A DNA stretch of 64,000 nt from Eledone cirrhosa (lineage: Eukaryota). Position 1 is the first letter of the stretch. Each line of letters opens with the position of its first letter. A program made the position numbers and the translations under genes. The stretch covers positions 8,308,001 through 8,372,000 of the forward strand of contig OZ024756.1 in the NCBI GenBank assembly GCA_964016885.1, given 5' to 3'. Below, piece after piece: positions 1 to 54,227 of this stretch. The notes under the pieces are model-generated. The model ran no database searches. It saw nothing but the letters and a program-made list of their open reading frames with translations, and had not been told where the DNA came from.

Positions 1-3000
1 TGCTATTTGTTGTCACCTACATGACCACTTTACAGTGTGGACTGGGTGCTACTTGTTGTCACCTACATGACCACTTTACAGTGTGGACTGGGTGCTATTT
101 GTTGTCACCTACATGACCAGTTTACAGTGTGGACTGGGTGCTATTTGTTGTCGCCTACATGACCAGTTTACAGTGTGGACTGGGTGCTATTTGTTGTCAC
201 CTACATGACCAGTTTACAGTGAGGACTGGGTGTTATTTGTTGTCACCTACACGACCACTTTACAGTGTGGACTGGGTGCTATTTGTTGTCACCTACATGA
301 CCAGTTTACAGTGAGGACTGGGTGCTATTTGTTGTCACCTACATGACCAGTTTACAGTGAGGACTGGGTGTTATTTGTTGTCACCTACACGACCACTTTA
401 CAGTGTGGACTGGGTGCTATTTGTTGTCACCTACATGACCAGTTTACAGTGAGGACTGGGTGCTATTTGTTGTCACCTACATGACCAGTTTACAGTGTGG
501 ACTGGGTGCTATTTGTTGTCACCTACATGACCAGTTTACAGTGAGGACTGGGTGCTATTTGTTGTCACCTACATGACCAGTTTACAGTGTGGACTGGGTG
601 CTATTTCTTGTCACCTACATGACCAGTTTACAGTGTGGACTGGGTGCTATTTCTTGTCACCTACATGACCACTTTACAGTGTGGACTGGGTGCTATTTCT
701 TGTCACCTACATGACCAGTTTACAGTGTGGACTGGGTGCTATTTCTTGTCACCTACATGACCAGTTTACAGTGTGGACTGGGTGCTATTTGTTGTCACCT
801 ACATGACCAGTTTACAGTGAGGACTGGGTGCTATTTGTTGTCACCTACATGACCAGTTTACAGTGTGGACAGGGTGCTATTTGTTGTCACCTACATGACT
901 CGTTTACAGTGAGGACTGGGTGCTATTTGTTGTCAGCTACATGACCACCTTACAGTGTGGACTGGGTGCTACTTGTTGTCACCTACATGACCACTTTACA
1001 GTGTGGACTCGGTGCTATTTGTTGTCACCTACATGACCACTTTACAGTGTGGACTGGGTGCTATTTGTTGTCACCTACATGACCAGTTTACAGTGAGGAC
1101 TGGGTGCTATTTGTTGTCACCTACACGACCAGTTTACTGTGAGGACTGAGTGCTATTTGTTGTTACCTACATGACCAGTTTACAGTGAGGACTGGGTGCT
1201 ATTTGTTGTCACCTATATGACTACTTTACAGTGAGGACTGGGTGCTATTTGTTGTCACCTACACGACCAGTTTACAGTGAGGACTGGGTGCTATTTCTTG
1301 TCACCTACATGACCTGTTACAGTGAGGACTGGGTGCTATTTCTTGTCACCTACATGACCCCTTTACAGTGTGGACTGGGTGCTATTTCTTGTCACCTACA
1401 TGACCAGTTTACAGTGAGGACTGGGTGCTATTTGTTGACACCTACACGACCAGTTTACAGTGAGGACTGGGTGCTATTTCTTGTCACCTACATGACCAGT
1501 TTACAGTGCGGACTGGGTGCTATTTGTTGTCACCTACATGACCAGTTTACAATGACGACTGGGTGCTATTTGTTGTCACCCACATGACCTGTTTACTGTG
1601 AGGACTGGGTGCTATTTGTTGTCACCTACATGACGAGTTTACAGTGAGGACTGGATGCTATTTGTTGTCACCTACACGACCAGTTTACAGTGAGGACTGG
1701 GTGCTATTTGTTGTCACCTACATGACTACTTTACAGTGAGGACTGGGTGCTATTTGTTGTCACCTACACGACCAGTTTACAGTGAGGACTGGGTACCATT
1801 TGTTGTCACCTACACGACCAGTTTACACTATGGACTGGGTGCTATTTCTTGTCACCTACATGACCAGTTTACAGTGTGGACTGGGTGCTATTTGTTGTCA
1901 CCTACACGACCAGTTTACAGTGTGGACTGGGTGCTATTTGTTGTCACCTACACGACCAGTTTACAGTGTTGACTGGGTGCTATTTCTTGTCACCTACATG
2001 ACCAGTTTACAGTGTGGACTGGGTGCTATTTGTTGTCACCTACATGACCAGTTTACAGAGAGGACTGGGTGCTATTTGTTGTCACCTACATGAACAGTTT
2101 ACAGTGAGGACTGGGTGCTATTTGTTGTCACCTACATGAACAGTTTACAGTGAGGACTGGGTGCTATTTCTTGTCACCTACATGACCAGTTTACAGTGAG
2201 GACTGGGTGCTATTTGTTGTCACCTACATGACCAGTTTACAGTGTGGACTGGGTGCTATTTCTTGTCACCTACACGACCAGTTTACAGTGAGGACTGGGT
2301 GCTATTTGTTGTCACCTACATGACCAGTTTACAATGAGGACTGGGTGCTATTTGTTGTCACCTACATGACCTGTTTACAGTGTGGACTGGGTGCTATTTG
2401 TTGTCACCTACACGACCAGTTTACAGTGTGGACTGGGTGCTATTTGTTGTCACCTACATGACCAGTTTACAGTGTAGACTGGGTGCTATTTGTTGTCACC
2501 TACATGACCAGTTTACAGTGAGGACTGGGTGCTATTTGTTGTCACCTACATGACCAGTTTACAGTGAGGACTGGGTGCTATTTGTTGTCACCTACATGAC
2601 CAGTTTACAGTGTGGACTGGGTGCTATTTGTTGTCACCTACATGACCAGTTTACACTGAGGACTGGGTGCTATTTGTTGTCACCTACATGACCACTTTAC
2701 AGTGTGGACTGGGTGCTACTTGTTGTCACCTACATGACCAGTTTACAGTGTGGACTGGGTGCTATTTCTTGTCACCTACATGACCACTTTACAGTGTGGA
2801 CTGGGTGCTATTTCTTGTCACCTACATGACCAGTTTACAGTGTGGACTGGGTGCTATTTCTTGTCACCTACATGACCAGTTTACAGTGTGGACTGGGTGC
2901 TATTTGTTGTCACCTACATGACCAGTTTACAGTGAGGACTGGGTGCTATTTGTTGTCACCTACATGACCAGTTTACAGTGTGGACAGGGTGCTATTTGTT

Positions 3001-6000
3001 GTCACCTACATGACTCGTTTACAGTGAGGACTGGGTGCTATTTGTTGTCAGCTACATGACCACCTTACAGTGTGGACTGGGTGCTACTTGTTGTCACCTA
3101 CATGACCACTTTACAGTGTGGACTGGGTGCTATTTGTTGTCACCTACATGACCACTTTACAGTGTGGACTGGGTGCTATTTGTTGTCACCTACATGACCA
3201 GTTTACAGTGAGGACTGGGTGCTATTTGTTGTCACCTACACGACCAGTTTACTGTGAGGACTGAGTGCTATTTGTTGTTACCTACATGACCAGTTTACAG
3301 TGAGGACTGGGTGCTATTTGTTGTCACCTATATGACTACTTTACAGTGAGGACTGGGTGCTATTTGTTGTCACCTACACGACCAGTTTACAGTGAGGACT
3401 GGGTGCTATTTCTTGTCACCTACATGACCTGTTACAGTGAGGACTGGGTGCTATTTCTTGTCACCTACATGACCCCTTTACAGTGTGGACTGGGTGCTAT
3501 TTCTTGTCACCTACATGACCAGTTTACAGTGAGGACTGGGTGCTATTTGTTGACACCTACACGACCAGTTTACAGTGAGGACTGGGTGCTATTTCTTGTC
3601 ACCTACATGACCAGTTTACAGTGCGGACTGGGTGCTATTTGTTGTCACCTACATGACCAGTTTACAATGACGACTGGGTGCTATTTGTTGTCACCCACAT
3701 GACCTGTTTACTGTGAGGACTGGGTGCTATTTGTTGTCACCTACATGACGAGTTTACAGTGAGGACTGGATGCTATTTGTTGTCACCTACACGACCAGTT
3801 TACAGTGAGGACTGGGTGCTATTTGTTGTCACCTACATGACTACTTTACAGTGAGGACTGGGTGCTATTTGTTGTCACCTACACGACCAGTTTACAGTGA
3901 GGACTGGGTACCATTTGTTGTCACCTACACGACCAGTTTACACTATGGACTGGGTGCTATTTCTTGTCACCTACATGACCAGTTTACAGTGTGGACTGGG
4001 TGCTATTTGTTGTCACCTACACGACCAGTTTACAGTGTGGACTGGGTGCTATTTGTTGTCACCTACACGACCAGTTTACAGTGTTGACTGGGTGCTATTT
4101 CTTGTCACCTACATGACCAGTTTACAGTGTGGACTGGGTGCTATTTGTTGTCACCTACATGACCAGTTTACAGAGAGGACTGGGTGCTATTTGTTGTCAC
4201 CTACATGAACAGTTTACAGTGAGGACTGGGTGCTATTTGTTGTCACCTACATGAACAGTTTACAGTGAGGACTGGGTGCTATTTCTTGTCACCTACATGA
4301 CCAGTTTACAGTGAGGACTGGGTGCTATTTGTTGTCACCTACATGACCAGTTTACAGTGTGGACTGGGTGCTATTTCTTGTCACCTACACGACCAGTTTA
4401 CAGTGAGGACTGGGTGCTATTTGTTGTCACCTACATGACCAGTTTACAATGAGGACTGGGTGCTATTTGTTGTCACCTACATGACCTGTTTACAGTGTGG
4501 ACTGGGTGCTATTTGTTGTCACCTACACGACCAGTTTACAGTGTGGACTGGGTGCTATTTGTTGTCACCTACATGACCAGTTTACAGTGTAGACTGGGTG
4601 CTATTTGTTGTCACCTACATGACCAGTTTACAGTGAGGACTGGGTGCTATTTGTTGTCACCTACATGACCAGTTTACAGTGAGGACTGGGTGCTATTTGT
4701 TGTCACCTACATGACCAGTTTACAGTGTGGACTGGGTGCTATTTGTTGTCACCTACATGACCAGTTTACACTGAGGACTGGGTGCTATTTGTTGTCACCT
4801 ACATGACCACTTTACAGTGTGGACTGGGTGCTACTTGTTGTCACCTACATGACCAGTTTACAGTGTGGACTGGGTGCTATTTCTTGTCACCTACATGACC
4901 AGTTTACAGTGTGGACTGGGTGCTATTTCTTGTCACCTACATGACCACTTTACAGTGTGGACTGGGTGCTATTTCTTGTCACCTACATGACCAGTTTACA
5001 GTGTGGACTGGGTGCTATTTGTTGTCACCTACATGACCAGTTTACAGTGAGGACTGGGTGCTATTTGTTGTCACCTACATGACCAGTTTACAGTGTGGAC
5101 AGGGTGCTATTTGTTGTCACCTACATGACTCGTTTACAGTGAGGACTGGGTGCTATTTGTTGTCAGCTACATGACCACCTTACAGTGTGGACTGGGTGCT
5201 ACTTGTTGTCACCTACATGACCACTTTACAGTGTGGACTGGGTGCTATTTGTTGTCACCTACATGACCAGTTTACAGTGAGGACTGGGTGCTATTTGTTG
5301 TCACCTACACGACCAGTTTACTGTGAGGACTGAGTGCTATTTGTTGTTACCTACATGACCAGTTTACAGTGAGGACTGGGTGCTATTTGTTGTCACCTAT
5401 ATGACTACTTTACAGTGAGGACTGGGTGCTATTTGTTGTCACCTACACGACCAGTTTACAGTGAGGACTGGGTGCTATTTCTTGTCACCTACATGACCTG
5501 TTACAGTGAGGACTGGGTGCTATTTCTTGTCACCTACATGACCCCTTTACAGTGTGGACTGGGTGCTATTTCTTGTCACCTACATGACCAGTTTACAGTG
5601 AGGACTGGGTGCTATTTGTTGACACCTACACGACCAGTTTACAGTGAGGACTGGGTGCTATTTCTTGTCACCTACATGACCAGTTTACAGTGCGGACTGG
5701 GTGCTATTTGTTGTCACCTACATGACCAGTTTACAATGACGACTGGGTGCTATTTGTTGTCACCCACATGACCTGTTTACTGTGAGGACTGGGTGCTATT
5801 TGTTGTCACCTACATGACGAGTTTACAGTGAGGACTGGATGCTATTTGTTGTCACCTACACGACCAGTTTACAGTGAGGACTGGGTGCTATTTGTTGTCA
5901 CCTACATGACTACTTTACAGTGAGGACTGGGTGCTATTTGTTGTCACCTACACGACCAGTTTACAGTGAGGACTGGGTACCATTTGTTGTCACCTACACG

Positions 6001-9000
6001 ACCAGTTTACAGTATGGACTGGGTGCTATTTCTTGTCACCTACATGACCAGTTTACAGTGTGGACTGGGTGCTATTTGTTGTCACCTACACGACCACTTT
6101 ACAGTGTGGACTGGGTGCTACTTGTTGTCACCTACATGACCACTTTACAGTGTGGACTGGGTGCTATTTGTTGTCACCTACATGACCACTTTACAGTGTG
6201 GACTGGGTGCTATTTCTTGTCACCTACATGACCAGTTTACAGTGAGGACTGGGTGCTATTTGTTGTCACCTACATGACCAGTTTACAGTGTGGACTGGGT
6301 GCTATTTCTTGTCACCTACATGACCAGTTTACAGTGAGGACTGGGTGCTATTTGTTGTCACCTACATGACCAGTTTACAGTGAGGACTGGGTGCTATTTC
6401 TTGTCACCTACATGACCAGTTTACAGTGTGGACTGGGTGCTATTTGTTGTCACCTACATGACCAGTTTTCAATGAGGACTGGGTGCTATTTGTTGTCACC
6501 TACATGACCTGTTTACAGTGTGGACTGGGTGCTATTTGTTGTCACCTACATGACCAGTTTACAGTGTGGACTGGGTGCTATTTGTTGTCACCTACATGAC
6601 CAGTTTACAGTGAGGACTGGGTGCTATTTGTTGTCACCTACATGACCAGTTTACAGTGTGGACTGGGTGCTATTTGTTGTCACCTACATGACCAGTTTAC
6701 ACTGAGGACTGGGTTCTATTTGTTGTCACCTACATGACCACTTTACAGTGTGGACTGGGTGCTACTTGTTGCCACCTACATGACCACTTTACAGTGTGGA
6801 CTGGGTGCTATTTGTTGTCACCTACATGACCACTTTACAGTGTGGACTGGGTGCTATTTGTTGTCACCTACACGACCAGTTTACAGTGAGGACTGGGTGC
6901 TATTTGTTGTCACCTACATGACCAGTTTACAGTGAGGACTGGGTGCTATTTGTTGTAACCTACACGACCAGTTTACAGTGTGGACTGGGTGCTATTTGTT
7001 GTCACCTACATGACCAGTTTACAGTGAGGACTGGGTGCTATTTGTTGTCACCTACATGACCAGTTTACAGTGTGGACTGGGTGCTATTTGTTGTCACCTA
7101 CATGACCAGTTTACAGTGTGGACTGGGTGCTATTTGTTGTCACCTACATGACCAGTTTACAGTGAGGACTGGGTGCTATTTGTTGTCACCTACATGACCA
7201 GTTTACAGTGAGGACTGGGTGCTATTTGTTGTCACCTACATGACCACTTTACAGTGTGGACTGGGTGCTACTTGTTGTCACCTACATGACCACTTTACAG
7301 TGTGGACTGGGTGCTATTTGTTGTCACCTACATGACCAGTTTACAGTAAGGACTGGGTGCTATTTGTTGTCACCTACATGACCACTTTACAGTGTGGACT
7401 GGGTGCTATTTGTTGTCACCTACATGACCAGTTTACAGTGAGGACTGGGTGCTATTTGTTGTCACCTACATGACCACTTTACAGTGTGGACTGGGTGCTA
7501 CTTGTTGTCACCTACATGACCACTTTACAGTGTGGACTGGGTGCTATTTGTTGTCTCCTACATGACCAGTTTACAGTGTGGACTGGGTGCTATTTGTTGT
7601 CACCTACATGACCACTTTACAGTGTGGACTGGGTGCTATTTGTTGTCACCTACATGACCAGTTTACAGTGAGGACTGGGTGCTATTTGTTGTCACCTACA
7701 TGACCACTTTACAGTGTGGACTGGGTGCTACTTGTTGTCACCTACATGACCACTTTACAGTGTGGACTGGGTGCTATTTGTTGTCACCTACATGACCAGT
7801 TTACAGTGAGGACTGGGTGTTATTTGTTGTCACCTACACGACCAGTTTACAGTGTGGACTGGGTGCTATTTCTTGTCACCTATATGACCAGTTTACAGTG
7901 TGGACTGGGTGCTATTTCTTGTCACCTACATGACCAGTTTACAGTGAGGACTGGGTGCTATTTGTCGTCACCTAGATGACCAGTTTACAGTGAGGACTGG
8001 GTGCTATTTGTTGTCACCTACATGACCAGTTTACAGTGAGGACTGGGTGCTATTTCTTGTCACCTACATGACCAGTTTACAGTGAGGACTGGGTGCTATT
8101 TGTTGTCACATACATGACCAGTTTACAGTGAGGACTGGGTGCTATTTGTTGTCACCTACATGACCAGTTTACTGTGTGGACTGGGTGCTATTTGTTGTCA
8201 CCTACATGACCAGTTTACAGTGAGGACTGGGTGCTATTTGTTGTCACCTACATGACCAGTTTACAGTGAGGACTGGGTGCTATTTGTTGTCACCTACATG
8301 ACCAGTTTACAGTGTGGACTGGGTGCTATTTGTTGTCACCTACATGACCAGTTTACAGTGAGGACTGGGTGCTATTTGTTGTCACCTACATGACCACTTT
8401 ACAGTGTGGACTGGGTGCTATTTGTTGTCACCTACATGACCAGTTTACAGTGAGGACTGGGTGCTATTTGTTGTCACCTACATGACCAGTTTACAGTGTG
8501 GACTGGGTGCTACTTGTTGTCACCTACACGACCAGTTTACAGTGTTGAGGACTGGGTGCTATTTGTTGTCACCTACATGACCACTTTACAGTGTGGACTG
8601 GGTGCTATTTGTTGTCACCTACATGACCACTTTACAGTGTGGACTGGGTGCTATTTGTTGTCACCTACACGACCACTTTACAGTAAGGACTGGGTGCTAT
8701 TTGTTGTCACCTACAGGACCACTTTACAGTAAGGACTGGGTGCTATTTGTTGTCACCTACATGACCGGTTTACAGTGAGGACTGAGTGCTATTTGTTGTC
8801 ACCTACACGACCAGTTTACAGTGAGGATTGGGTGCTATTTTTGTCACCTACATGACCAGTTTACAGTGAAGAATGGGTGCTATTTGTTGTCACCTACATG
8901 ACCACTTTACAGTGTGGACTGGGTGCTACTTGTTATCACCTACTTGACCACTTTACAGTGTGGACTGGGTGCTATTTGTTGTCACCTACATGACCACTTT

Positions 9001-12000
9001 ACAGTGTGGACTGGGTGCTTTTTGTTGTCACCTACACGACCAGTTTACAGTGAGGACTGGGTGCTATTTTTGCCACCTACATGACCAGTTTACAGTGAGG
9101 ACTGGGTGCTATTTGTTGTCACCTACACGACCAGTTTACTGTGAGGACTGAGTGCTATTTGTTGTTACCTACATGACCAGTTTACAGTGAGGACTGGGTG
9201 CTATTTGTTGTCACCTATATGACTACTTTACAGTGAGGACTGGGTGCTATTTGTTGTCACCTACACGACCAGTTTACAGTGAGGACTGGGTGCTATTTGT
9301 TGTCACCTACATGACCAGTTTACAGTGTGGACTGGGTGCTATTTGTTGTCACCTACACGACCAGTTTACAGTGAGGACTGGGTGCTATTTGTTGTCACCT
9401 ACACGACCAGTTTACAGTGAGGACTGGGTGCTATTTCTTGTCACCTACATGACCTGTTACAGTGAGGACTGGGTGCTATTTCTTGTCACCTACATGACCC
9501 CTTTACAGTGTGGACTGGGTGCTATTTGTTGTCACCTACATGACCAGTTTACAGTGAGGACTGAGTGCTATTTGTTGACACCTACACGACCAGTTTACAG
9601 TGAGGACTGGGTACTATTTCTTGTCACCTACATGACCAGTTTACAATGTGGACTGGGTGCTATTTGTTGTCACCTACATGACCAGTTTACAATGACGAGT
9701 GGGTGCTATTTGTTGTCACCCACATGACCTGTTTACTGTGAGGACTGGGTGCTATTTGTTGTCACCTACATGACGAGTTTACAGTGAGGACTGGATGCTA
9801 TTTGTTGTCACCTACACGACCAGTTTACAGTGGGGACTGGGTGCTATTTGTTGTCACCTACATGACTACTTTACAGTGAGGACTGGGTGCTATTTGTTGT
9901 CAACTACACGACCAGTTTACAGTGAGGACTGGGTGCTATTTGTTGTCACCTACACGACCAGTTTACAGTGTGGACTGGGTGCTATTTCTTGTCACCTACA
10001 TGACCAGTTTACAGTGTGGACTGGGTGCTATTTGTTGTCACCTACACGACCAGTTTACAGTGTGGACTGGGTGCTATTTGTTGTCACCTACACGACCAGT
10101 TTACAGTGTTGACTGGGTGCTATTTCTTGTCACCTACATGACCAGTTTACAGTGTGGACTGGGTGCTATTTGTTGTCACCTACATGACCAGTTTACAGAG
10201 AGGACTGGGTGCTATTTGTTGTCACCTACATGACCAGTTTACAGTGAGGACTGGGTGCTATTTGTTGTCACCTACATGAACAGTTTACAGTGAGGACTGG
10301 GTGCTATTTCTTGTCACCTACATGACCAGTTTACAGTGAGGACTGGGTGCTATTTGTTGTCACCTACATGACCAGTTTACAGTGTGGACTGGGTGCTATT
10401 TCTTGTCACCTACATGACCAGTTTACAGTGAGGACTGGGTGCTATTTGTTGTCACCTACATGACCAGTTTACAATGAGGACTGGGTGCTATTTGTTGTCA
10501 CCTACATGACCTGTTTACAGTGTGGACTGGGTGCTATTTGTTGTCACCTACACGACCAGTTTACAGTGTGGACTGGGTGCTATTTGTTGTCACCTACATG
10601 ACCAGTTTACAGTGTAGACTGGGTGCTATTTGTTGTCACCTACATGACCAGTTTACAGTGAGGACTGGGTGCTATTTGTTGTCACCTACATGACCAGTTT
10701 ACAGTGTGGACTGGGTGCTATTTGTTGTCACCTACATGACCAGTTTACACTGAGGACTGGGTGCTATTTGTTGTCACCTACATGACCACTTTACAGTGTG
10801 GACTGGGTGCTACTTGTTGTCACCTACATGACCACTTTACAGTGTGGACTGGGTGCTATTCGTTGTCACCTACATGACCAGTTTACAGTGTGGACTGGGT
10901 GCTATTTGTTGTCGCCTACATGACCAGTTTACAGTGTGGACTGGGTGCTATTTGTTGTCACCTACATGACCAGTTTACAGTGAGGACTGGGTGTTATTTG
11001 TTGTCACCTACACGACCACTTTACAGTGTGGACTGGGTGCTATTTGTTGTCACCTACATGACCAGTTTACAGTGAGGACTGGGTGCTATTTGTTGTCACC
11101 TACACGACCAGTTTACTGTGAGGACTGAGTGCTATTTGTTGTTACCTACATGACCAGTTTACAGTGAGGACTGGGTGCTATTTGTTGTCACCTATATGAC
11201 TACTTTACAGTGAGGACTGGGTGCTATTTGTTGTCACCTACACGACCAGTTTACAGTGAGGACTGGGTGCTATTTCTTGTCACCTACATGACCTGTTACA
11301 GTGAGGACTGGGTGCTATTTCTTGTCACCTACATGACCCCTTTACAGTGTGGACTGGGTGCTATTTCTTGTCACCTACATGACCAGTTTACAGTGAGGAC
11401 TGGGTGCTATTTGTTGACACCTACACGACCAGTTTACAGTGAGGACTGGGTGCTATTTCTTGTCACCTACATGACCAGTTTACAGTGCGGACTGGGTGCT
11501 ATTTGTTGTCACCTACATGACCAGTTTACAATGACGACTGGGTGCTATTTGTTGTCACCCACATGACCTGTTTACTGTGAGGACTGGGTGCTATTTGTTG
11601 TCACCTACATGACGAGTTTACAGTGAGGACTGGATGCTATTTGTTGTCACCTACACGACCAGTTTACAGTGAGGACTGGGTGCTATTTGTTGTCACCTAC
11701 ATGACTACTTTACAGTGAGGACTGGGTGCTATTTGTTGTCACCTACACGACCAGTTTACAGTGAGGACTGGGTACCATTTGTTGTCACCTACACGACCAG
11801 TTTACAGTATGGACTGGGTGCTATTTCTTGTCACCTACATGACCAGTTTACAGTGTGGACTGGGTGCTATTTGTTGTCACCTACACGACCACTTTACAGT
11901 GTGGACTGGGTGCTACTTGTTGTCACCTACATGACCACTTTACAGTGTGGACTGGGTGCTATTTGTTGTCACCTACATGACCACTTTACAGTGTGGACTG

Positions 12001-18000: not shown

Positions 18001-21000
18001 CATGACCTGTTTACTGTGAGGACTGGGTGCTATTTGTTGTCACCTACATGACGAGTTTACAGTGAGGACTGGATGCTATTTGTTGTCACCTACACGACCA
18101 GTTTACAGTGAGGACTGGGTGCTATTTGTTGTCACCTACATGACTACTTTACAGTGAGGACTGGGTGCTATTTGTTGTCACCTACACGACCAGTTTACAG
18201 TGAGGACTGGGTACCATTTGTTGTCACCTACACGACCAGTTTACAGTATGGACTGGGTGCTATTTCTTGTCACCTACATGACCAGTTTACAGTGTGGACT
18301 GGGTGCTATTTGTTGTCACCTACATGAACAGTTTACAGTGAGGACTGGGTGCTATTTCTTGTCACCTACATGACCAGTTTACAGTGAGGACTGGGTGCTA
18401 TTTGTTGTCACCTACATGACCAGTTTACAGTGTGGACTGGGTGCTATTTCTTGTCACCTACACGACCAGTTTACAGTGTGGACTGGGTGCTATTTGTTGT
18501 CACCTACACGACCAGTTTACAGTGTGGACTGGGTGCTATTTGTTGTCACCTACATGACCAGTTTACAGTGTAGACTGGGTGCTATTTGTTGTCACCTACA
18601 TGACCAGTTTACAGTGAGGACTGGGTGCTATTTGTTGTCACCTACATGACCAGTTTACAGTGTGGACTGGGTGCTATTTGTTGTCACCTACATGACCAGT
18701 TTACAGTGTGGACTGGGTGCTATTTGTTGTCACCTACATGACCAGTTTACACTGAGGACTGGGTGCTATTTGTTGTCACCTACATGACCACTTTACAGTG
18801 TGGACTGGGTGCTACTTGTTGTCACCTACATGACCACTTTACAGTGTGGACTGGGTGCTATTTGTTGTCACCTACATGACCACTTTACAGTGTGGACTGG
18901 GTGCTATTTGTTGTCACCTACACGACCAGTTTACAGTGAGGACTGGGTGCTATTTGTTGTCACCTACATGACCAGTTTACAGTGAGGACTGGGTGCTATT
19001 TGTTGTAACCTACACGACCAGTTTACAGTGTGGACTGGGTGCTATTTGTTGTCACCTACATGACTAGTTTACAGTGAGGACTGGGTGCTATTTGTTGTCA
19101 CCTACATGACCAGTTTACAGTGTGGACTGGGTGCTATTAGTTGTCACCTACATGACCAGTTTACAGTGTGGACTGGGTGCTATTTGTTGTCGCCTACATG
19201 ACCAGTTTACAGTGAGGACTGGGTGCTATTTGTTGTCACCTACATGACCAGTTTACAGTGAGGACTGGGTGCTACTTGTTGTCACCTACATGACCAATTT
19301 ACAGTGTGGACTGGGTGCTACTTGTTGTCACCTACATGTCCACTTTACAGTGTGGACTGGGTGCTATTTGTTGTCACCTACATGACCAGTTTACAGTAAG
19401 GACTGGGTGCTATTTGTTGTCACCTACATGACCACTTTACAGTGTGGACTGGGTGCTACTTGTTGTCACCTACATGACCACTTTACAGTGTGGACTGGGT
19501 GCTATTTGTTGTCTCCTACATGACCAGTTTACAGTGTGGACTGGGTGCTATTTGTTGTCACCTACATGACCACTTTACAGTGTGGACTGGGTGCTATTTG
19601 TTGTCACCTACATGACCAGTTTACAGTGAGGACTGGGTGCTATTTGTTGTCACCTACATGACCACTTTACAGTGTGGACTGGATGCTACTTGTTGTCATC
19701 TACATGACCACTTTACAGTGTGGACTGGGTGCTATTTGTTGTCACCTACATGACCAGTTTACAGTGAGGACTGGGTGTTATTTGTTGTCACCTACACGAC
19801 CACTTTACAGTGTGGACTGGGTGCTATTTGTTGTCACCTACATGACCAGTTTACAGTGAGGACTGGGTGCTATTTGTTGTCACCTACATGACCAGTTTAC
19901 AGTGTGGACTGGGTGCTATTTGTTGTCACCTACATGACCAGTTTACAGTGAGGACTGGGTGCTATTTGTTGTCACCTACATGACCAGTTTACAGTGTGGA
20001 CTGGGTGCTATTTCTTGTCACCTACATGACCAGTTTACAGTGTGGACTGGGTGCTATTTCTTGTCACCTACATGACCAGTTTACAGTGTGGACTGGGTGC
20101 TATTTCTTGTCACCTACATGACCAGTTTACAGTGTGGACTGGGTGCTATTTCTTGTCACCTACATGACCAGTTTACAGTGTGGACTGGGTGCTATTTGTT
20201 GTCACCTACATGACCAGTTTACAGTGAGGACTGGGTGCTATTTGTTGTCACCTACATGACCAGTTTACAGTGTGGACAGGGCGCTATTTGTTGTCACCTA
20301 CATGACCCGTTTACAGTGAGGACTGGGTGCTATTTGTTGTCAGCTACATGACCACCTTACAGTGTGGACTGGGTGCTACTTGTTGTCACCTACATGACCA
20401 CTTTACAGTGTGGACTGGGTGCTATTTGTTGTCACCTACATGACCACTTTACAGTGTGGACTGGGTGCTATTTGTTGTCACCTACATGACCAGTTTACAG
20501 TGAGGACTGGGTGCTATTTGTTGTCACCTACATGACCAGTTTACAGTGAGGACTGGGTGCTATTTGTTGTCACCTACATGACCAGTTTACAGTGTGGACT
20601 GGGTGCTATTTGTTGTCACCTACATGACCAGTTTACAGTGAGGACTGGGTGCTATTTGTTGTCACCTACATGACCAGTTTACAGTGTGGACTGGGTGCTA
20701 TTTGTTGTCACCTACATGACCAGTTTACAGTGAGGACTGGGTGCTATTTGTTGTCACCTACATGACCAGTTTACAGTGTGGACTGGGTGCTATTTCTTGT
20801 CACCTACATGACCAGTTTACAGTGAGGACTGGGTGCTATTTGTTGTCACCTACATGACCAGTTTACAATGAGGACTGGGTGCTATTTGTTGTCACCTACA
20901 TGACCTGTTTACAGTGTGGACTGGGTGCTATTTGTTGTCACCTACACGACCAGTTTACAGTGTGGACTGGGTGCTATTTGTTGTCACCTACATGACCAGT

Positions 21001-21364
21001 TTACAGTGTGGACTGCGTGCTATTTGTTGTCACCTACATGACCAGTTTACAGTGAGGACTGGGTGCTATTTGTTGTCACCTACATGACCAGTTTACAGTG
21101 TGGACTGGGTGCTATTTGTTGTCACCTACATGACCAGTTTACACTGAGGACTGGGTGCTATTTGTTGTCACATACATGACCACTTTACAGTGTGGACTGG
21201 GTGCTACTTGTTGTCACCTACATGACCACTTTACAGTGTGGACTGGGTGCTATTTGTTGTCACCTACATGACCACTTTACAGTGTGGACTGGGTGCTATT
21301 TGTTGTCACCTACATGACCAGTTTACAGTGTGGACTGGGTGCTATTTGTTGTCACCTACATGAC
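1..21364. repeat. 46-bp tandem satellite, left block (about 460 copies, runs off the window start); consensus TTTACAGTG(A/T)GGACTGGGTGCTATTTGTTGTCACCTACATGACCA(G/C)
   Basis: Direct 46-bp periodicity. The short ORFs in the track here are translations of the unit in rotating frames. Confidence 0.98.
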
Positions 21365-21475
21365 ATGGGAGAGAAAAATCTGGACGCTCAGAGCGAAAAT
21401 GCCAAAGTTAAAGTCAAATTCACCTCGTGGACGAGAATGCGAGCACTCCTCTTTGTTTCGTCCGCGGATGGCTAA
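21365..21475 (+). other. 36-aa upstream ORF (MGEKNLDAQ...SSADG*) overlapping the start of the main ORF in another frame
   Basis: ATG at the element's first base; its TAA (21473-21475) follows just after the ATG at 21468. A short overlapping upstream ORF is known in C. elegans RTE-1. Confidence 0.45.
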
Positions 21476-24400
21476 CATAACCCTATCTCCCCCCGCCCCC
21501 CACCACCCCCACCCTCCAAACGCAACCCAAAACTTCAGAGTTGGTACCATAAATGTAGGCACCCTAAAGGGTCGCGCTAACGAGGTTGTAGAAATGCTTG
21601 AACGTAAGGAGGTCGATGTTTGTTGTATTCAAGAGACCAGGTGGAGGGGTGGGTCTGCTAGATTCATTGAGGGTAAAAAACGATGTTATAAGCTTTTCTG
21701 GGTGGGAAACGACGATGGGCTGGGTGGAGTAGGAATCATGGTAGCAGAAAAGTGGGCAGATAAGATAATAGACGTAAATAGAGTGAACGACAGAATAATT
21801 AAAATAAGACTTGTCCTCAATAGAACTACGGTGACAGTAATATCTGCGTACGCACCCCAATCCGGACTGCCCGGCACTATAAAAGACAGATTCTATGAGA
21901 CACTGTTGCTAACTACCTCCCAAATATCTGACAGTGACTATATAATTATTGCAGGCGACCTAAATGGTCACGTTGGACAACATTGTGACGGCTACGACGA
22001 AATCCATGGAGGCTATGGGTTTGGTACTAGAAATGAGGAAGGCTCCAGAATCCTGGAATTCTGTGATGCAAATAACCTAACTATCTGTAACACTAACTTC
22101 AAAAAACGTGACAATCACCTGATCACCTATAGATCCGGGGAACACACAAGCCAGGTAGATTATATCCTTACCAGAAGACGTGACAGAGTGTCTGTTGTAA
22201 ACACTAAATCCCTCCCCCATGAAGAATGCACCTCCCAACATAGACTGATAATTAGCGACCTCATAGTCAGGACGAGACGTACTCGACAGCAGAAGAGGAC
22301 TATCCTCAGGAGGAAAATATGGAAACTAAAGGACCCCACAGCCAGAAATAAATTTCAAAGCATATTACTTGATGCTTTCGACAGTAAGGAAGAGCATCTA
22401 GAATCGGACAATATAGAGGGACAGTGGGAATTTCTGAAAGCAAACCTGCTGTTGGCGACAGACGAAGTCTGTGGCTGGAGCAGGCCTGTAGGTAGCAGGA
22501 GAGTAACATGGTGGTGGAACAGTAAGGTGGAGGGGTCAATTAAGGCCAAAAAGCAGGCTTGGAAAGTATGGCGGGATGGGGGAAGTAGAGAAGACTATCA
22601 AGTGGCCAGGAGGGAAGCTAGGAGAGAAGTGTACTTAGCAAGAAGGGAAGCTGAGGAAAGAAAGTTCAAGCATGTTCTACAACGCGATGACCAAAAACGT
22701 GAGGTGTTCAGGATTGCCAGGCAATGCGTCAAGGAAAACCGTGATATTGTCGGGGAGAAGTGTGTACTTAACGATGATGGCATACTTGCCATCACCGACA
22801 CTGATAAGAAGGTAGCTTGGAAGTGTCACTATGAAAGGCTACTAAATGAGGAGAATAAATGGGAGAAAGACAGTCTCCCCCATATCGACCCGATAGAGGG
22901 ACCAGCAGTGTTAGTCGAGGGGAGTATAATAAGTAAGGCAATCAAGGATATGAAGACGGGTAAGGCGGCTGGGCCTTCGGAAATAGTTGCTGAGATGCTG
23001 AAGGCATCTGGCACGGTGGGACACACCATGGTCACCCGCATAGTTAACCAAGTCGTACAGAATGGGGTTGTTCCGAAGGACTGGCATAGCAGCATCATCG
23101 TTAACTGTTATAAGGGTAAAGGAGACGCCCTAGATAGGAGTAACTATAGAGGCATTAAATTAATCGACCAGGTCATGAAGGTCACGGAAAAAGTAATAGC
23201 GCAACTAATCAGAGAGAGAATTGACCTAGATGAAATGCAGTTCGGGTTTGTGTCAGGCAAAAGCACCACAGACGCTCTTTTCATAGTACGACAACTACAG
23301 GAGAAGTACCTAGCTAAAGGTAAACCCCTCTACTTAGCTTTTGTCGACCTGGAGAAAGCCTTCGACAGAGTCCCCCGCTCCATTATCTGGTGGGCTCTTA
23401 GAAAACTAGGCGTTGACGAATGGCTTGTGAGGGCTATACAAGCCATGTATAAAGAAACAGTCAGCAAGGTTAGAATTAACAACGAATATAGTGAAGAGTT
23501 TAGCGTAAAAGTTGGCGTCCATCAGGGCTCTGTTCTCAGCCCCCTACTATTTATTATTGCCCTTCAGGCTATAACAGAGGAGTTCAAGACAGGCTGCCCA
23601 TGGGAACTCCTATACGCAGACGACCTGACACTCATAGCGGAATCAATGGCCGAGCTAGAGAAGAAATTCCAAACATGGAAGCACGGCCTAGAGTCAAAAG
23701 GACTTAAAATTAACCTGGCTAAGACCAAAGTTCTAGTTTGTAGGAAAGAAAACAAGGCGGCGGTCCCTTCTGGGAAATGGTCGTGCTCGGTATGTAGGAA
23801 AGGCGTAGGTAGAAACTCCATCTTATGTCCTAAATGCAAAGTATGGGTGCATAAAAGATGTAGTTGGATCACAGGTAAGCTAACTAAGAACATAGACTTT
23901 ACATGTGGCCGGTGTTCTGGTGCAATAAGTAGCAGCAAGTGCCCACAAAATACTAGCTCTTTCAATTGCGCAGAGGGTTCTATAGAAATAGTGGACAGCT
24001 TCCGTTACCTGGGCGATAAAATCAGCAGTGGGGGAGGGTGCTCTGAAAGTACTGTAGCTAGAGTCAGAACTGGTTGGAAAAAGTTCAGAGAGCTTATACC
24101 ACTATTAGCTGCTAAAGGGTTCTCCCTAAAAATGAAAGGCAGGTTGTACGATGCCTGCATACGAACAGCAATGTTGCATGGTAGTGAGACCTGGGCATTG
24201 TGTGCAGAGGATATACGCAGACTAGAGAGGAACGAAGCTTGCATGCTCCGCTGGATGTGTAACAGTAATATACGTGAACGGCAAAGCATAAACGAACTAA
24301 GGAAAAAATTAGAGATAAGAGGGATCAGATGTTGTTTACTCGAGAGAAGGTTGCGTTGGTATGGACACGTGATGCGCATGAAAGTCGATAGCTGTATTAC

Positions 24401-24581
24401 AAAGTGCAGGGCAATAAAGATAGACGGTAGCCACGGAATAGGCAGACCGAGAAAAACATGGGATGAGCTGATAAACTCCGACCTCACACACTTACACCTC
24501 TCCAAGACAATGTCACTGGACCGAGACCTTTGGCGGTACTCAGTAACAGAGAAGACCCGCCTTGCCAGTAGGCATCTCTAA
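21399..24581 (+). CDS. RTE LINE polyprotein: apurinic-like endonuclease, reverse transcriptase and internal C4HC3 zinc finger (first element-encoded in-frame ATG 21399; alternative ATG 21468)
   Basis: APE motifs GTINVGTL, CIQETRW, SAYAPQ, GDLNGH, VDYIL and SQHRL. RT motifs NYRGIKL, QFGF, FVDLEKAFDRV, GVHQGSVLSPLLF, LYADD and FRYLG. C-terminal RLRWYGHVMR and GRPRKTW are typical of RTE. Confidence 0.95.
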   Translation: MPKLKSNSPRGRECEHSSLFRPRMANITLSPPAPHHPHPPNATQNFRVGTINVGTLKGRANEVVEMLERKEVDVCCIQETRWRGGSARFIEGKKRCYKLFWVGNDDGLGGVGIMVAEKWADKIIDVNRVNDRIIKIRLVLNRTTVTVISAYAPQSGLPGTIKDRFYETLLLTTSQISDSDYIIIAGDLNGHVGQHCDGYDEIHGGYGFGTRNEEGSRILEFCDANNLTICNTNFKKRDNHLITYRSGEHTSQVDYILTRRRDRVSVVNTKSLPHEECTSQHRLIISDLIVRTRRTRQQKRTILRRKIWKLKDPTARNKFQSILLDAFDSKEEHLESDNIEGQWEFLKANLLLATDEVCGWSRPVGSRRVTWWWNSKVEGSIKAKKQAWKVWRDGGSREDYQVARREARREVYLARREAEERKFKHVLQRDDQKREVFRIARQCVKENRDIVGEKCVLNDDGILAITDTDKKVAWKCHYERLLNEENKWEKDSLPHIDPIEGPAVLVEGSIISKAIKDMKTGKAAGPSEIVAEMLKASGTVGHTMVTRIVNQVVQNGVVPKDWHSSIIVNCYKGKGDALDRSNYRGIKLIDQVMKVTEKVIAQLIRERIDLDEMQFGFVSGKSTTDALFIVRQLQEKYLAKGKPLYLAFVDLEKAFDRVPRSIIWWALRKLGVDEWLVRAIQAMYKETVSKVRINNEYSEEFSVKVGVHQGSVLSPLLFIIALQAITEEFKTGCPWELLYADDLTLIAESMAELEKKFQTWKHGLESKGLKINLAKTKVLVCRKENKAAVPSGKWSCSVCRKGVGRNSILCPKCKVWVHKRCSWITGKLTKNIDFTCGRCSGAISSSKCPQNTSSFNCAEGSIEIVDSFRYLGDKISSGGGCSESTVARVRTGWKKFRELIPLLAAKGFSLKMKGRLYDACIRTAMLHGSETWALCAEDIRRLERNEACMLRWMCNSNIRERQSINELRKKLEIRGIRCCLLERRLRWYGHVMRMKVDSCITKCRAIKIDGSHGIGRPRKTWDELINSDLTHLHLSKTMSLDRDLWRYSVTEKTRLASRHL

Positions 24582-24941
24582 CAAAATACACCCCGTCCCG
24601 CCACCACCCCCACCCCATCCACACCACCCCGTTCTATGTAAAGTTATGTTGGTGCCGCGCCATCCAGGCCGAAACAAATGAGATCGTGTAGGTGTCACGA
24701 CAAAAAAACACACAGTCCACGCTGTAATGTGGCCGTGTAGGCAACACGGTAAAAACCTCCCAGACCCACACTGTAAATGTGGTTGGTGTTAGGAAGGGCA
24801 TCCAACTGTAGAAAACCTGCCAGACAGTCCTATGCGAGCAAGACAATCACTCTTGCCTCAAGTGGGACTACCCCCGTCCAAACCCATGCAAGCGTGGAAC
24901 ACGGACGTTAAACGTTGATGATGATGATGATGATGATGATG

Positions 24942-27490
24942 ACCAGTTTACAGTGAGGACTGGGTGCTATTTGTTGTCACCTACATGACCACTTTACAGT
25001 GTGGACTGGGTGCTATTTGTTGTCACCTACATGACCACTTTACAGTGCGGACTGGGTGCTATTTGTTGTCACCTACATGACCAGTTTACAGTGTGGACTG
25101 GGTGCTATTTGTTGTCACCTACATGACCACTTTACAGTGTGGACTGGGTGCTACTTGTTGTCACCTACATGACCACTTTACAGTGTGGACTGGGTGCTAT
25201 TTGTTGTCACCTACATGACCAGTTTACAGTGAGGACTGGGTGCTATTTGTTGTCACCTACGTGACTACTTTACAGTGTGGACTGGGTGCTACTTGTTGTC
25301 ACCTACATGACCAGTTTACAGTGTGGACTGGGTGCTATTTGTTGTCACCTACATGACCAGTTTACAATGAGGACTGGGTGCTATTTGTTGTCACCTACAT
25401 GACCTGTTTACAGTGTGGACTGGGTGCTATTTGTTGTCACCTACACGACCAGTTTACAGTGAGGACTGGGTGCTATTTGTTGTCACCTACATGACCAGTT
25501 TACAGTGTGGACTGGGTGCTATTTGTTGTCACCTACATGACCAGTTTACAGCGTGGACTGGGTGCTATTTGTTGTCACCTACATGACCACTTTACAGTGT
25601 GGACTGGGTGCTATTTGTTGTCACCTACACGACCAGTTTACAGTGAGGACTGGGTGCTATTTGTTGTCACCTACATGACCAGTTTACAGTGAGGACTGGG
25701 TGCTATTTGTTGTCACCTACATGACCAGTTTACAGTGAGGACTGGGTGCTATTTGTTGTCACCTACATGACCACTTTACAGTGTGGACTGGGTGCTACTT
25801 GTTGTCACCTACATGACCACTTTACAGTGTGGACTGGGTGCTATTTGTTGTCACCTACATGACCAGTTTACAGTGAGGACTGGGTGCTATTTGTTGTCAC
25901 CTACATGACTACTTTACAGTGTGGACTGGGTGCTACTTGTTGTCACCTACATGACCACTTTACAGTGTGGACTGGGTGCTATTTGTTGTCACCTACATGA
26001 CCAGTTTACAGTGAGGACTGGGTGTTATTTGTTGTCACCTACATGACCACTTTACAGTGTGGACTGGGTGCTATTTGTTGTCACCTACACGACCAGTTTA
26101 CAGTGAGGACTGGGTGCTATTTGTTGTCACCTACATGACCAGTTTACAGTGTGGACTGGGTGCTATTTGTTGTCACCTACATGACCAGTTTACAGTGAGG
26201 ACTGGGTGCTATTTGTTGTCACCTACATGACTACTTTACAGTGAGGACTGGGTGCTATTTGTTGTTACCTACATGACCAGTTTACAGTGTGGACTGGGTG
26301 CTATTTGTTGTCACCTACACGACCAGTTTACAGTGAGGACTGGGTGCTATTTGTTGTCACCTACATGACCAGTTTACAGTGTGGACTGGGTGCTATTTGT
26401 TGCCACCTACACGACCAGTTTACAGTGAGGACTGGGTGCTATTTGTTGTCACCTACATGACCAGTTTACAGTGTGGACTGGGTGCTATTTGTTGTCACCT
26501 ACATGACCAGTTTACAGTGAGGACTGGGTGCTATTTGTTGTCACCTACATGACTACTTTACAGTGAGGACTGGGTGCTATTTGTTGTTACCTACATGACC
26601 AGTTTACAGTGTGGACTGGGTGCTACTTGTTGTCACCTACACGACCAGTTTACAGTGAGGACTGGGTGCTATTTGTTGTCACCTACATGACCAGTTTACA
26701 GTGTGGACTGGGTGCTATTTGTTGTCACCTACACGACCAGTTTACAGTGAGGACTGGGTGCTATTTGTTGTCACCTACACGACCAGTTTACAGTGAGGAC
26801 TGGGTGCTATTTGTTGTCACCTACATGACCAGTTTACAGTGTGGACTGGGTGCTATTTGTTGTCACCTACACGACCAGTTTACAGTGAGGACTGGGTGCT
26901 ATTTGTTGTCACCTACACGACCAGTTTACAGTGAGGACTGGGTGCTATTTGTTGTCACCTACATGACCAGTTTACAGTGAGGACTGGGTGCTATTTGCTG
27001 TCACCTACATGACCAGTTTACAGTGAGGACTGGGTGCTATTTGTTGTCACCTACATGACCAGTTTACAGTGTGGACTGGGTACTTTTTGTCATGACACCT
27101 ACATGACCACTTTACAGTGTGGACTGGGTGCTACTTGTTGTCACCTACACGACCACTTTACAGTGTGGACCGGGTGCTACTTGTTGTCACCTACATGACC
27201 ACTTTACAGTGTGGACTGGGTGCTATTTGTTGTCACCTACATGACCACTTTACAGTGTGGACTGGGTGCTATTTGTTGTCACCTACATGACCAGTTTACA
27301 GTGTGGACTGGGTGCTATTTGTTGTCACCTACATGACTACTTTACAGTGTGGACTGGGTGCTATTTGTTGTCACCTACATGACCAGTTTACAGTGTGGAC
27401 TGGGTGCTATTTGTTGTCACCTACATGACTACTTTACAGTGTGGACTGGGTGCTATTTGTTGTCACCTACATGACCAGTTTACAATGTTG
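24942..27490. repeat. 46-bp tandem satellite, right block (about 55 copies)
   Basis: The same unit resumes in register right after the LINE tail. Confidence 0.97.
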
Positions 27491-29338: not shown

Positions 29339-29843
29339 GTTCAGTTTGTGAGACATCAACAGACTCTAGTTCAGCTTTCGTTGAGTCATCGATAGGACTT
29401 TGATTTTCTATAATCACTTCAGTGGTCACTGTCGTAGAATCCACAACATCATTGTTGGCCAAATCTTCATCAGTTGCTGCCGTCGTCTCTAGTTTCTCCT
29501 GCGACTGCGGTGGCTGGCTGTCATCAGCATCAGTGCTTGATTCAACATTATTCACCAGAACATCCTCTGACGTTTCTTCGTTTTCTCGTAACTCTTTGTT
29601 CTCACCATCAACTATGACAGTCTCAGCAAAACTGACAGAAACTTCACCACTTTTCTGTTTGGTATTTGTCACTTGTTCATCAGTAATGTCGTCCTGTGTG
29701 TCAGCTTCTTCTTTTGTTACAGGAATTTCCTGCAACTCCAGCTTCAACTCGTCTTCTTCGTGTACAGAAGCCACCCGTTTCTGTTGCTCAACCTCCTTCT
29801 TCCTCTTTTCAGCTGCTTCCATTGTTTTACGAGCAAATTTTAT
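29339..29843 (-). CDS. RALBP1: RALBP1 coding exon 10 (IKFARKTMEAAEKRKKE..., acidic low-complexity region)
   Basis: AG acceptor after a polypyrimidine tract at 29844-29845, phase 0 continuing from exon 9, open frame, GTAAGT donor at 29338-29333. Confidence 0.8.
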
Positions 29844-30242: not shown

Positions 30243-30444
30243 CTTTCTCTTTAACTGTGTCACAACTCGCTGAACTTCCCACAACTGCTCGTTTTTCGAC
30301 GTATCTTCCACCCCAGCGTTTAACTCTTCATGTAGTTGGTTCAATAAAGATTCTTGTTTAGCAAGTTCTTCCTCTAAGGCCGAAAGGTTGTCGGGGAGTT
30401 CAAGAGACCATCGAGATGTGGCTGGTTTTAATGGTGGAATATAT
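30243..30444 (-). CDS. RALBP1: RALBP1 coding exon 9, Ral-binding helices (YIPPLKP...ELPDNLSALEEELAKQESLLNQLHEELNAG...QLWEVQRVVTQLKRK)
   Basis: Manual translation matches the RLIP76 Ral-binding motif LWEVQRxxTxLKRK. AG/GT boundaries, 202 nt, phase consistent. Confidence 0.93.
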
Positions 30445-33554: not shown

Positions 33555-34560
33555 GGTGTTCAGGTGCAAGTGTCCACAGGATACTAGTTCCTTCTATTGC
33601 CCAGATGGCTCTATAGAAATAGTGGACACCTTCCGTTACCTGGGTGACAAAATCAGCAGTGGTGGAGGGTGCTCTGAAAGTACAGTAGCCAGAGTCAGAA
33701 CGGGATGGAAAAAGTTCAGAGAGCTTATACAACTATTGGCCGCTAAAGGTTTCTCTCTAAAAATGAAAGGCAGACTGTATGATGCCTGCATACGAACAGC
33801 AATGTTACATGACAGTGAGACATGGGCATTGTGTGCAGAGGATCTGCGCAGACTGGAGAGGAACGAAGCATGCATACTCCGTTGAATGTGTAATATATGT
33901 GAACAGCAAAGTATAAATGAAGTAAGTGGGAAATTAGGAATAAGAGGGATCAGATGTTGCTTACTCAAGAGAGGACTACGCTGGTATGGTCACGCGATGC
34001 GCATGAAAGACGACAGCGATATAAAACAATGCAGGGCGATCAAAATTGATGGAAGTTACGGAGTAGGTAGACCCAGGAAAACCTGGGACAATTTGATAAA
34101 TTCCGACCTTACACACTTACACCTCTCCAAGACAATGTCACTGGACAGAGAACTTTGGCGCTACACAGTAATACAGAAGACCAGACTTGCCTATGTACAA
34201 AGCGAAACCTACAGTCAGTAGGCACCTCTTAACCAAATATACACCCCAATACCACTACCCCCACCAACACCACCCTTTCTCTGTAAAGTTATGTTGGTAT
34301 CACAACATCCACTCCAAAATAAATGAGGTCATGTAGGTGTCACGACAAAAAAACATCCAGTAACACGGTAAAAAGCTCCCAGTCCACACTGTAAACGTGG
34401 TTGGTGTTAGGAAGGGCATCCAGCCGTAGAACACCTGCCAGACAGCCCTATACGAGCGAGACATGGTCACCCGACCAATCTTGCCTCACGTGGGACAATT
34501 CCCATCTAAACCCTTGCTAGCGTGGAAGATAGACGTTAAATGTTGATGATGATGATGAGG
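33555..34560 (+). mobile_element. 5'-truncated, decayed copy of the same RTE family (C-terminal ORF, 3' UTR, GAT tail)
   Basis: Peptide near-identical to the intact copy (IEIVDTFRYLGDKISSGGGCSESTVARVRTGWKKFREL), a TGG>TGA stop at 33883-33885, and a homologous 3' UTR. Confidence 0.92.
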
Positions 34561-54030: not shown

Positions 54031-54227
54031 CTGAAAAAAAAAAAAAAAGAAAACTTTACATCAGATTCATCATCATCACCATTTTATGTCCATTCTTCCA
54101 CATTTACATAGGTTAAACAAGTTGTATTGTTGTGGGCAATGCTAGGTCATGTGACCATGTCTTGTTCATACAGAACTGATTGTGGCTTGGTTTCTACAGA
54201 TGGATGCCCTCCCTAAAGCCAACCTAA

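Follow-up and report, generated by a model that had tools for sequence, protein, structure and literature searches.

A giant minisatellite in a RALBP1 intron of Eledone cirrhosa, probably grown from a LINE 3′ UTR repeat, and the young LINE copy inside it

Introduction

In the octopod Eledone cirrhosa, a giant array of 46-bp units fills most of an intron of RALBP1 and encloses a LINE copy with an unbroken reading frame, which runs opposite to the repeat that its own 3′ UTR resembles. How did an element come to lie inside a satellite related to itself, and does the arrangement do anything to the element's family? Flamenco-type piRNA clusters likewise contain an antisense copy of an active element in a long host transcript, and they hold many elements with an antisense bias, whereas the array described here holds a single insertion in 94 kb. 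A sequence-only reading of the locus had suggested a trap or silencing locus. Here, we analyse the window, by which we mean the whole stretch of 64,000 nucleotides at positions 8,308,001 to 8,372,000 of contig OZ024756.1, together with the motif and the LINE family across the genome.

Results

The reverse complement of three array units aligns with the LINE 3′ UTR at 24684–24777 in 71 of 95 columns (75%, counted by hand). The alignment scores 63, against a maximum of 29 both in 2,000 shuffles compared with the UTR and in 300 shuffles compared with the whole LINE on both strands, and, read in sense, the unit scores 17. The similarity first seen by eye is thereby confirmed, and a second motif copy claimed for the window was found inside an older, 79%-identical copy of the family (Table 1). 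Also borne out was the count of more than 500 antisense motif copies around the LINE, with 464.5 copies in the left arm and 55.4 in the right. The array extends 69.7 kb to the left of the window with 1,516 further units, which gives ~93.6 kb and ~2,035 units in total, and it is the minus-strand reading of its units that matches the 3′ UTR repeat. The host is a 100-kb intron of RALBP1 on the minus strand, most of which is the 94-kb array; RALBP1 exons with a GT donor and an AG acceptor (~70,715 bases left of the window) lie on either side, as had been supposed. Given a minus-strand gene, sense units and a plus-strand LINE, the pre-mRNA would indeed carry sense motif copies together with an antisense LINE.

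Table 1 Features of the window and their positions
Feature	Position	Strand	Remarks
46-bp minisatellite, left arm	1..21364	-	continues ~69,730 bases left of the window, to contig position ~8,238,270
Young RTE-type LINE copy, 5′-truncated	21367..24942	+	99.3–99.55% identity to 29 other copies
Unbroken ORF, 1060 aa from first remaining ATG	21399..24581	+	APE endonuclease, reverse transcriptase, PHD-like finger
Two degenerate 48–49-bp tandem units in LINE 3′ UTR	24684..24782	+	homologous to array unit
(GAT)n microsatellite tail	24916..24942	+	shares ATGA with target
46-bp minisatellite, right arm	24939..27488	-	55 units
RALBP1 exon	29339..29843	-	GT donor at 29338 starts the 100-kb array-bearing intron
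RALBP1 exon, Ral-binding region	30243..30444	-	99% identity to Octopus RALBP1
Older LINE-family copy, 79%	33566..34569	+	same 3′ UTR repeat at ~34327–34395
Separate 48-bp array, same motif, 86 units	54228..58352	-	in register into element tail at ~54070–54227
Separate 48-bp array, same motif, more diverged	62149..62547	-	in register with element tail

The motif is widespread in the genome. A 33-mer of the 48-bp unit form is matched 19,542 times, counting both strands. Across 69 sampled stretches of 10 kb (one of 60 drawn for sampling proved not to exist and was left out), the motif makes up 0.97% of the sequence, and seven of the 69 hold a cluster of at least four units. Array sizes are 2, 3, 4–33, 86 and ~2,035 units. 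Five of the seven clusters in this unbiased sample run in register into an element tail, as do arrays in the window. By contrast, the 46-bp form is confined to one place: a 29-mer specific to it matches the genome 1,020 times, always inside the RALBP1 array, and all 40 scored candidates of a BLAST search with four array units were this array (exact-pattern counts superseded BLAST for the genome-wide tally).

Retrotransposition itself might make or spread such arrays, either because the reverse transcriptase stutters on the 3′ UTR repeat or because RNA comprising array plus tail is mobilised, in which case the seed at RALBP1 arrived already expanded. A sister subfamily, ~92% identical, points in this direction with a 112-bp 3′ UTR duplication that is younger and fixed in that subfamily; its junction occurs 10,214 times, with two to four junctions at 4 of the 26 loci inspected and five at another (L260). 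So do the loci found by motif search, where 21 of 25 clusters of at least four units have no element body upstream. However, the contrast is gone in the unbiased sample, in which a body lies upstream of 3 of 7 clusters of at least four units and 8 of 34 clusters of one to three (overlapping loci from one place counted once, one cluster at a stretch edge excluded from body counts), and the 46-bp variant is restricted to the RALBP1 locus, which argues for giant expansion in place. We regard this route as rather unlikely; it bears on the seed only and is compatible with the preferred reading, local expansion of a LINE-derived repeat. A stricter form, in which stuttering leaves arrays systematically 5′-truncated inside the repeat, had been proposed from the motif-selected loci and was demoted to this alternative on the unbiased sample.

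Within the left arm, unit variants are duplicated in multi-kb blocks; the giant array has lost its own tail, and its terminal unit is inverted. The recurrence of near-identical multi-kb blocks could also mean that an assembly error inflates the length, but this is very improbable given that 115 distinct variants of the 46-bp unit are interleaved, that the flanks are unique and carry the RALBP1 exons in the right order on both sides, and that the window contains no N.

The LINE in the array is 99.3–99.55% identical to 29 other copies, and its family has at least 40 copies at 99% identity or more. We take it to be RTE-type from its architecture and C-terminal motifs: one long ORF encodes an APE endonuclease and a reverse transcriptase, and the element ends in a (GAT)n tail, found in all long copies read, which here overlaps the target by ATGA. 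Its closest relatives, nearly all unnamed, are at most 54% identical. Tails that overlap their targets are a published RTE feature (PMC6007223). The copy had been called intact, and its reading frame is indeed unbroken, but it is not full length: the 5′ UTR and first codons are gone, and the ORF is open from an internal ATG. The family frame has an ATG ~24 codons ahead of the MPKLK start, which gives an ORF of ~1084 aa. All 29 other long copies fetched reach further 5′, by 59–888 nt (approximate values, in part raised by TA runs), and 25 of the 29 have an open frame of at least 1060 aa, taking the longest frame per locus.

At its left junction the array reads ...ATGAC, followed by AT and the element, and at its right junction (GAT)n is followed by GACCAG, so that the target-site duplication is GAC or ATGAC (3–5 bp). 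The units flanking the LINE are not the same at a variable site, which favours such a short duplication over one that spans at least one entire unit. A small target deletion may also have occurred. No pre-insertion copy of the flanking unit string was found elsewhere in the array. Automatic target-site duplication calls in TA runs are unreliable and were not used, and among contigs of four runs aligned to 21300–25000 no listed piece bridges either LINE–array junction, which is uninformative for such repeats.

The LINE is the only insertion in 93.6 kb. With 12,512 exact young tails in the genome, 0.38 insertions are expected per 90 kb (0.39 for 93.6 kb, hand-scaled). Copies that extend to the same 5′ point number 249, so ~2.4 of them are expected in motif DNA genome-wide; the prior for a long copy in this particular array is only ~0.008, which counts against an ordinary insertion.

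A fold-back of the LINE 3′ UTR onto neighbouring units had been claimed, and a duplex is predicted if the junction is transcribed: the minus strand of 24670–25070 folds at −152 kcal/mol, against −114 ± 5.6 in shuffles (z −6.9). Transcription driven by the LINE itself and reading through into the array, the other part of that claim, is unlikely, since this copy would have lost its promoter region with the 5′ UTR. More broadly, RALBP1 transcripts that run across the array and the antisense LINE could form double-stranded RNA that is edited or cut into small RNAs repressing the family. Beyond the fold, which ordinary insertion does not call for, the RNA of the intron would include 3.55 kb of sequence antisense to a young family in which most long copies keep the frame. 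But the predicted duplex is ~90–100 bp and imperfect, its longest exact complement being 15 nt and every 21-mer having at least two mismatches, and array units read from the host strand run in the same direction as LINE RNA and therefore cannot pair in trans with LINE transcripts. Neither dense elements nor antisense bias, the marks of a piRNA cluster or trap, are seen, with one insertion in the array and, over the 174-kb region around the gene, family tails on either strand (5 plus and 7 minus). None of 162 other young insertions lies in the motif and there is no antisense excess, so the trap or silencing reading fails as an account of where copies land, and as a function of this locus it is highly unlikely. 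The same low probability attaches to the wider scenario in which the 3′ UTR of an octopod RTE family seeds minisatellites amounting to ~1% of the genome, the RALBP1 array captured an active element in antisense, and the host-transcribed junction is a source of double-stranded or small RNA that restrains the family.

The 162 insertions comprise 100 tails and 62 other long copies (7 of 40 long copies were dropped for want of a tail at the expected position), and neither set contains one in the motif. About 1.6 would be expected, because the motif covers ~1% of the genome. The uniform null gives no more than a rough guide, since this family favours TA runs and the true expectation in arrays may therefore be below 1%. 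All 100 tails were taken from a single contig, within its first 17 Mb, and one satellite accounts for 39. Site-specific LINEs of the R1/Tx1 type have most of their copies inside the target repeat, which is far from the pattern here. The base after the tail is a purine in 94 of the 100 tails, and 49 lie in TA/CA runs. The plus strand of the array unit has a single AT^purine site, and the LINE sits there, at the family's usual junction.

Junctions with the motif elsewhere in the genome run from tail to sense units in 48 places and from tail to antisense units in 7, in mirror-image patterns, and many of the sense junctions are probably 5′ ends of a downstream copy and not insertions into that copy. 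The suggested genome-wide test, for copies enriched in the arrays and opposed to them, thus fails. The junction GATGAT|GACCA[CG]TTTACAGTG is identical in three independent events, namely the window, L102 and L104/L105 (the last two being one duplicated event), so that at least two other insertions share exactly the antisense register of the array LINE; L110 is near it. This shared register, a point against ordinary insertion, fits the single AT^purine site and also fits mild targeting. Pairing of the 3′ UTR of LINE RNA with array DNA or nascent RNA, steering insertion in the opposite orientation, could account for these three events and for further antisense junctions at L110, L141, L149 and L151, but it is highly unlikely, because no sampled insertion adjoins the motif, sense junctions are commoner (although many are probably such downstream 5′ ends), a different LINE family with a GAT tail adjoins the same site at L106, and an unrelated 18-bp satellite shows all 39 of its tails in one orientation.

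Discussion

Here, we find that the array is very probably a tandem repeat from the 3′ UTR of an RTE-type LINE, likely expanded in place in the RALBP1 intron, and that the LINE inside is a young, 5′-truncated later arrival, most likely by ordinary insertion. The proposed history starts from what the genome shows: family members carry two or three tandem 48–49-bp units just 5′ of the tail, and at many loci such units form arrays of 4–86 copies, most of them in register with a tail. The 46-bp variant, limited to the RALBP1 locus, would then have grown to 93.6 kb via slippage and unequal exchange, leaving the multi-kb block duplications. A member of the active subfamily would then have used target-primed reverse transcription to insert at CTACAT^GACC, the sole AT^purine site of that unit strand, at which ATGA is available for pairing with the (GAT)n tail. 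Its orientation and register would follow from target preference, with no requirement for array homology, and whatever duplex formed in the host pre-mRNA would be incidental.

The closest parallel is in plants. Ogre satellites of Lathyrus sativus are described as grown from short tandem repeats in a retrotransposon 3′ UTR, with arrays from short to long and parent-family elements inserted in the expanded arrays in both orientations (PMC7004042). Here too, the 3′ UTR of the element holds the monomer in short tandem form, and short arrays keep a fixed place and orientation to the element while sizes range up to very long. Ogre is an LTR element whose arrays lie near centromeres, whereas ours is a non-LTR LINE of an octopod, and its long array is a single-locus variant within a gene intron. 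A 3′-UTR-derived minisatellite family with one giant intronic array is the LINE counterpart of the Ogre-derived satellites, and the nesting of a LINE in its own satellite is itself ordinary.

Satellites from non-LTR 3′ ends include the common cetacean satellite (L1), chicken HinfI (CR1) and Drosophila 18HT (HeT-A/TART), according to a review in which no word starts with ‘RTE’ (PMC9659126); our monomer shares that source, although the seed here is a pre-existing 48-bp UTR tandem that expands separately at many loci. RTE-generated microsatellite families of Lepidoptera are likewise tandem repeats seeded from RTE 3′ ends genome-wide, but they are simple and come from the extreme tail, whereas here an internal 46–49-bp unit reaches 94 kb (PMC2887409). 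RTE-2_OV of Octopus vulgaris, an octopod RTE LINE, resembles our family by description, with a single ORF of 1109 aa (against ~1084 aa) and the same endonuclease, reverse transcriptase and zinc finger (PMC9115989). Its sequence is said by a later paper not to have been reported (PMC13282606), and the tail motif of our family is absent from the 8 of 12 supplementary files of PMC9115989 searched. Judged by titles and the starts of abstracts, in a search that most subscription papers fell outside, we found no published account of an octopod RTE 3′-UTR minisatellite.

The locus offers a clear example, in an animal LINE, of satellites that arose from a 3′ UTR repeat, with all stages in one genome: the two-unit seed, the 112-bp duplication of the sister subfamily, many short arrays and a locus-specific 94-kb array in a conserved gene. 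It also cautions that target-site preference alone can give the LINEs of a satellite a single orientation, and it provides a useful system for the study of satellite birth and intron inflation in cephalopods.

Results

The array of 46-bp units is a real and unusually large feature of a RALBP1 intron. The sequence-only reading had raised this location as a possibility, and tblastn confirms it, with RALBP1 exons flanking the giant array on both sides and in order. The array-bearing intron covers ~100 kb: its GT donor is at 29338, and its AG acceptor lies ~70,715 bases beyond the left edge of the window. Beyond the part in the window, the array extends another 69.7 kb leftward, giving a total of about 93.6 kb and about 2,035 units; its 115 unit variants lie in multi-kb block duplications, and the mean difference from the commonest letters is 3.2%. 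All matches to a 29-mer specific to the 46-bp unit (1,020/1,020 in the 3.0-Gb Eledone cirrhosa genome) fall inside this one array, so the giant expansion is local. At its left end (L037, about 69,770-69,730 bases left of the window) one inverted unit lies beside a TA run and the expected element tail is absent, which suggests a local inversion or deletion. Most other RALBP1 introns bear minisatellites too, and the 52-bp unit of one resembles, by eye, a dispersed repeat at about 28860-28920 and 31130-31200.

Features of the RALBP1 locus (window coordinates unless stated)
Feature	Position	Strand	Remark
46-bp array, window part	1-21364 and 24939-27488		TRF
LINE left junction			...CCTACATGAC-AT-element
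LINE right junction			(GAT)n-GACCAG
RALBP1 exon	30243-30444	minus	99% identity to Octopus RALBP1
Intron minisatellite	35136-37382		52-bp unit
Intron minisatellite	43309-45365		43-bp unit
Intron minisatellite	38450-39596		30-bp unit
Intron minisatellite	41600-42350		72-bp unit
Intron minisatellite	49848-51628		20-58-bp units
Extra motif array	54228-58352
Extra motif array	62149-62547
Extra motif array	about 73 kb left of window
Extra motif array	about 17 kb right of window

The reverse complement of the array unit matches the LINE 3' UTR (24684-24777) in 71 of 95 columns by hand count, with a score of 63, which upholds the relationship first noticed by eye; shuffles reached at most 29, whether the UTR (2,000 shuffles) or the whole element (300) was the target. 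The UTR itself contains two degenerate 48-49-bp tandem units. The array unit scores 33-36 against the common 48-bp arrays and 27 against the young UTR. It therefore stems from a related and probably older subfamily, not from the window copy.

The motif is abundant. A 33-mer that spans the junction between 48-bp units matches the genome exactly at 19,542 places on both strands, and the motif makes up 0.97% of bases in 69 stretches of 10 kb, placed at analyst-chosen round coordinates with small chromosomes over-represented. Clusters of at least four units occur in 7 of the 69; five of these run in register into an element tail, two or three of them being the 112-bp duplication of a sister subfamily. 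The array polarity seen at motif-selected loci was not seen in this unbiased sample of 69. The sister subfamily (about 92% identical) carries the 112-bp duplication, which affects the same region of the UTR, at 10,214 junctions genome-wide; 4 of the 26 loci examined, and L260 as well, show further amplification. The duplication (L170, L175, L260, L262-L291) is joined at a short shared word, and some instances have reached 3-6 copies. Since separate loci share variants, expanded UTRs can apparently be retrotransposed.

The window LINE had been described as intact. It does have one ORF encoding an APE endonuclease, RT and a PHD-like finger, followed by a (GAT)n tail, but it is 5'-truncated, because all 29 other long copies fetched extend 59-888 nt farther 5' (rough estimates) and their frame starts at an ATG about 24 codons upstream of MPKLK. 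LINEs generally carry their promoter in the 5' UTR, the part that this copy lacks. At least 40 copies are ≥99% identical over its length; a 28-mer from the tail matches 12,512 places in the genome and one from its 5' end 249. The insertion has a 3-5-bp target duplication with an ATGA overlap, and its junction with the array is present once despite the block duplications, so it is likely later than the array expansion. The LINE group is also represented by an older RT fragment (58846-59641, 73% identical), which passes straight into a tandem repeat of 21-bp units at 59647. Words of the LINE (21280-24990) also occur in sequencing runs of 17 organisms from 16 studies, two with small shares, and contigs from two other organisms hold pieces 97-100% identical over 150-580 bases (depth only ~3-16 in one run), which may reflect close relatives, horizontal transfer or carry-over.

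A test for enrichment of insertions in the arrays, and for an orientation opposite to them, had been proposed; the copies sampled show no enrichment, and the junctions counted show no antisense excess. Among young tails, the first 100 listed (contig 1, 0-17 Mb) include none next to the motif, whichever orientation is considered; their surroundings are TA/CA runs in 49 and an unrelated 18-bp satellite in 39. Nor does the motif border any of the 62 other long copies whose tail could be read (29 + 33; 7 of 40 lacked a tail at the expected place). Pooled, this is 0/162, where a uniform model would give about 1.6; the rule-of-three upper bound is about 1.9%, roughly double the genomic share. Uniform insertion would yield 0.38 young tails per 90 kb. 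For long copies it gives about 2.4 within motif DNA across the genome, but only about 0.008 in the RALBP1 array itself. Mirror-image patterns with a GAT tail within 30 bases of a unit core were counted by hand at 48 distinct sense places and 7 antisense ones. Many of the 48 probably mark the 5' end of another copy lying downstream, while L111 looks like an insertion within a sense array; its contig-1 junction is repeated on the small contig G000:C1794, possibly an uncollapsed haplotype.

In 94 of 100 young tails a purine follows the last GAT, and the plus strand of the unit offers only one AT^purine site, CTACAT^GACC, where the window LINE sits. The same antisense junction occurs in two other independent insertions, L104/L105 and L102 (copies 95% and 77-86% identical), and at L106 a different LINE with a GAT tail adjoins the same unit site. 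L104 and L105, 0.87 Mb apart on G000:C25, are near-identical loci resembling a segmental duplication. The shared junction is the best evidence for targeting, but one favoured site per unit would also produce it. As a control, all 39 tails in the 18-bp satellite have one orientation relative to it, with 35 distinct flanks, although some may be copies made along with the satellite. This 2-Mb satellite (G000:C1, about 7.34-9.58 Mb, L191-L230), which takes 39 of the first 100 tails in the same register, is a strong natural insertion hotspot. Overlap of RTE tails with their targets has been described (PMC6007223).

The proposed folding of the LINE 3' UTR onto the satellite is reproduced in prediction: either strand would fold back across the 3' junction, at -152.2 kcal/mol for minus-strand 24670-25070 against -113.9 +/- 5.6 in 100 shuffles. 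The UTR-array duplex reaches about -115 kcal/mol (perfect duplex -223), with a longest exact complement of 15 nt and 2 mismatches in the best 21-mers. Array units read on the RALBP1 strand match LINE RNA in sense, which leaves the embedded antisense copy as the only part that could act on the family in trans, as any antisense intronic copy could. LINE-family tails around RALBP1 lie in both orientations (5 plus, 7 minus). A trap or silencing function is not supported by the tests run (0/162 at the motif; 48 sense versus 7 antisense).

Discussion

We found no earlier report of an octopod RTE 3'-UTR repeat family in the literature searched, coverage of which is incomplete. Related cases have been published: LINE 3'-derived satellites in cetaceans, chicken and Drosophila (PMC9659126), microsatellites seeded by RTE elements in moths (PMC2887409) and active RTE families in Octopus (PMC9115989, PMC13282606). 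The RALBP1 arrangement, in which 3' UTR tandem repeats give rise to arrays and copies of the parent family insert into them, matches that of Ogre-derived satellites in grass pea, where most satellites stem from tandem repeats of the 3' UTR and expanded arrays receive Ogre insertions (PMC7004042). Satellites from retrotransposon 3' UTR repeats are a known kind, to which the RALBP1 array is an added case. The 112-bp duplication marks the birth of a second and younger minisatellite from the LINE 3' UTR.
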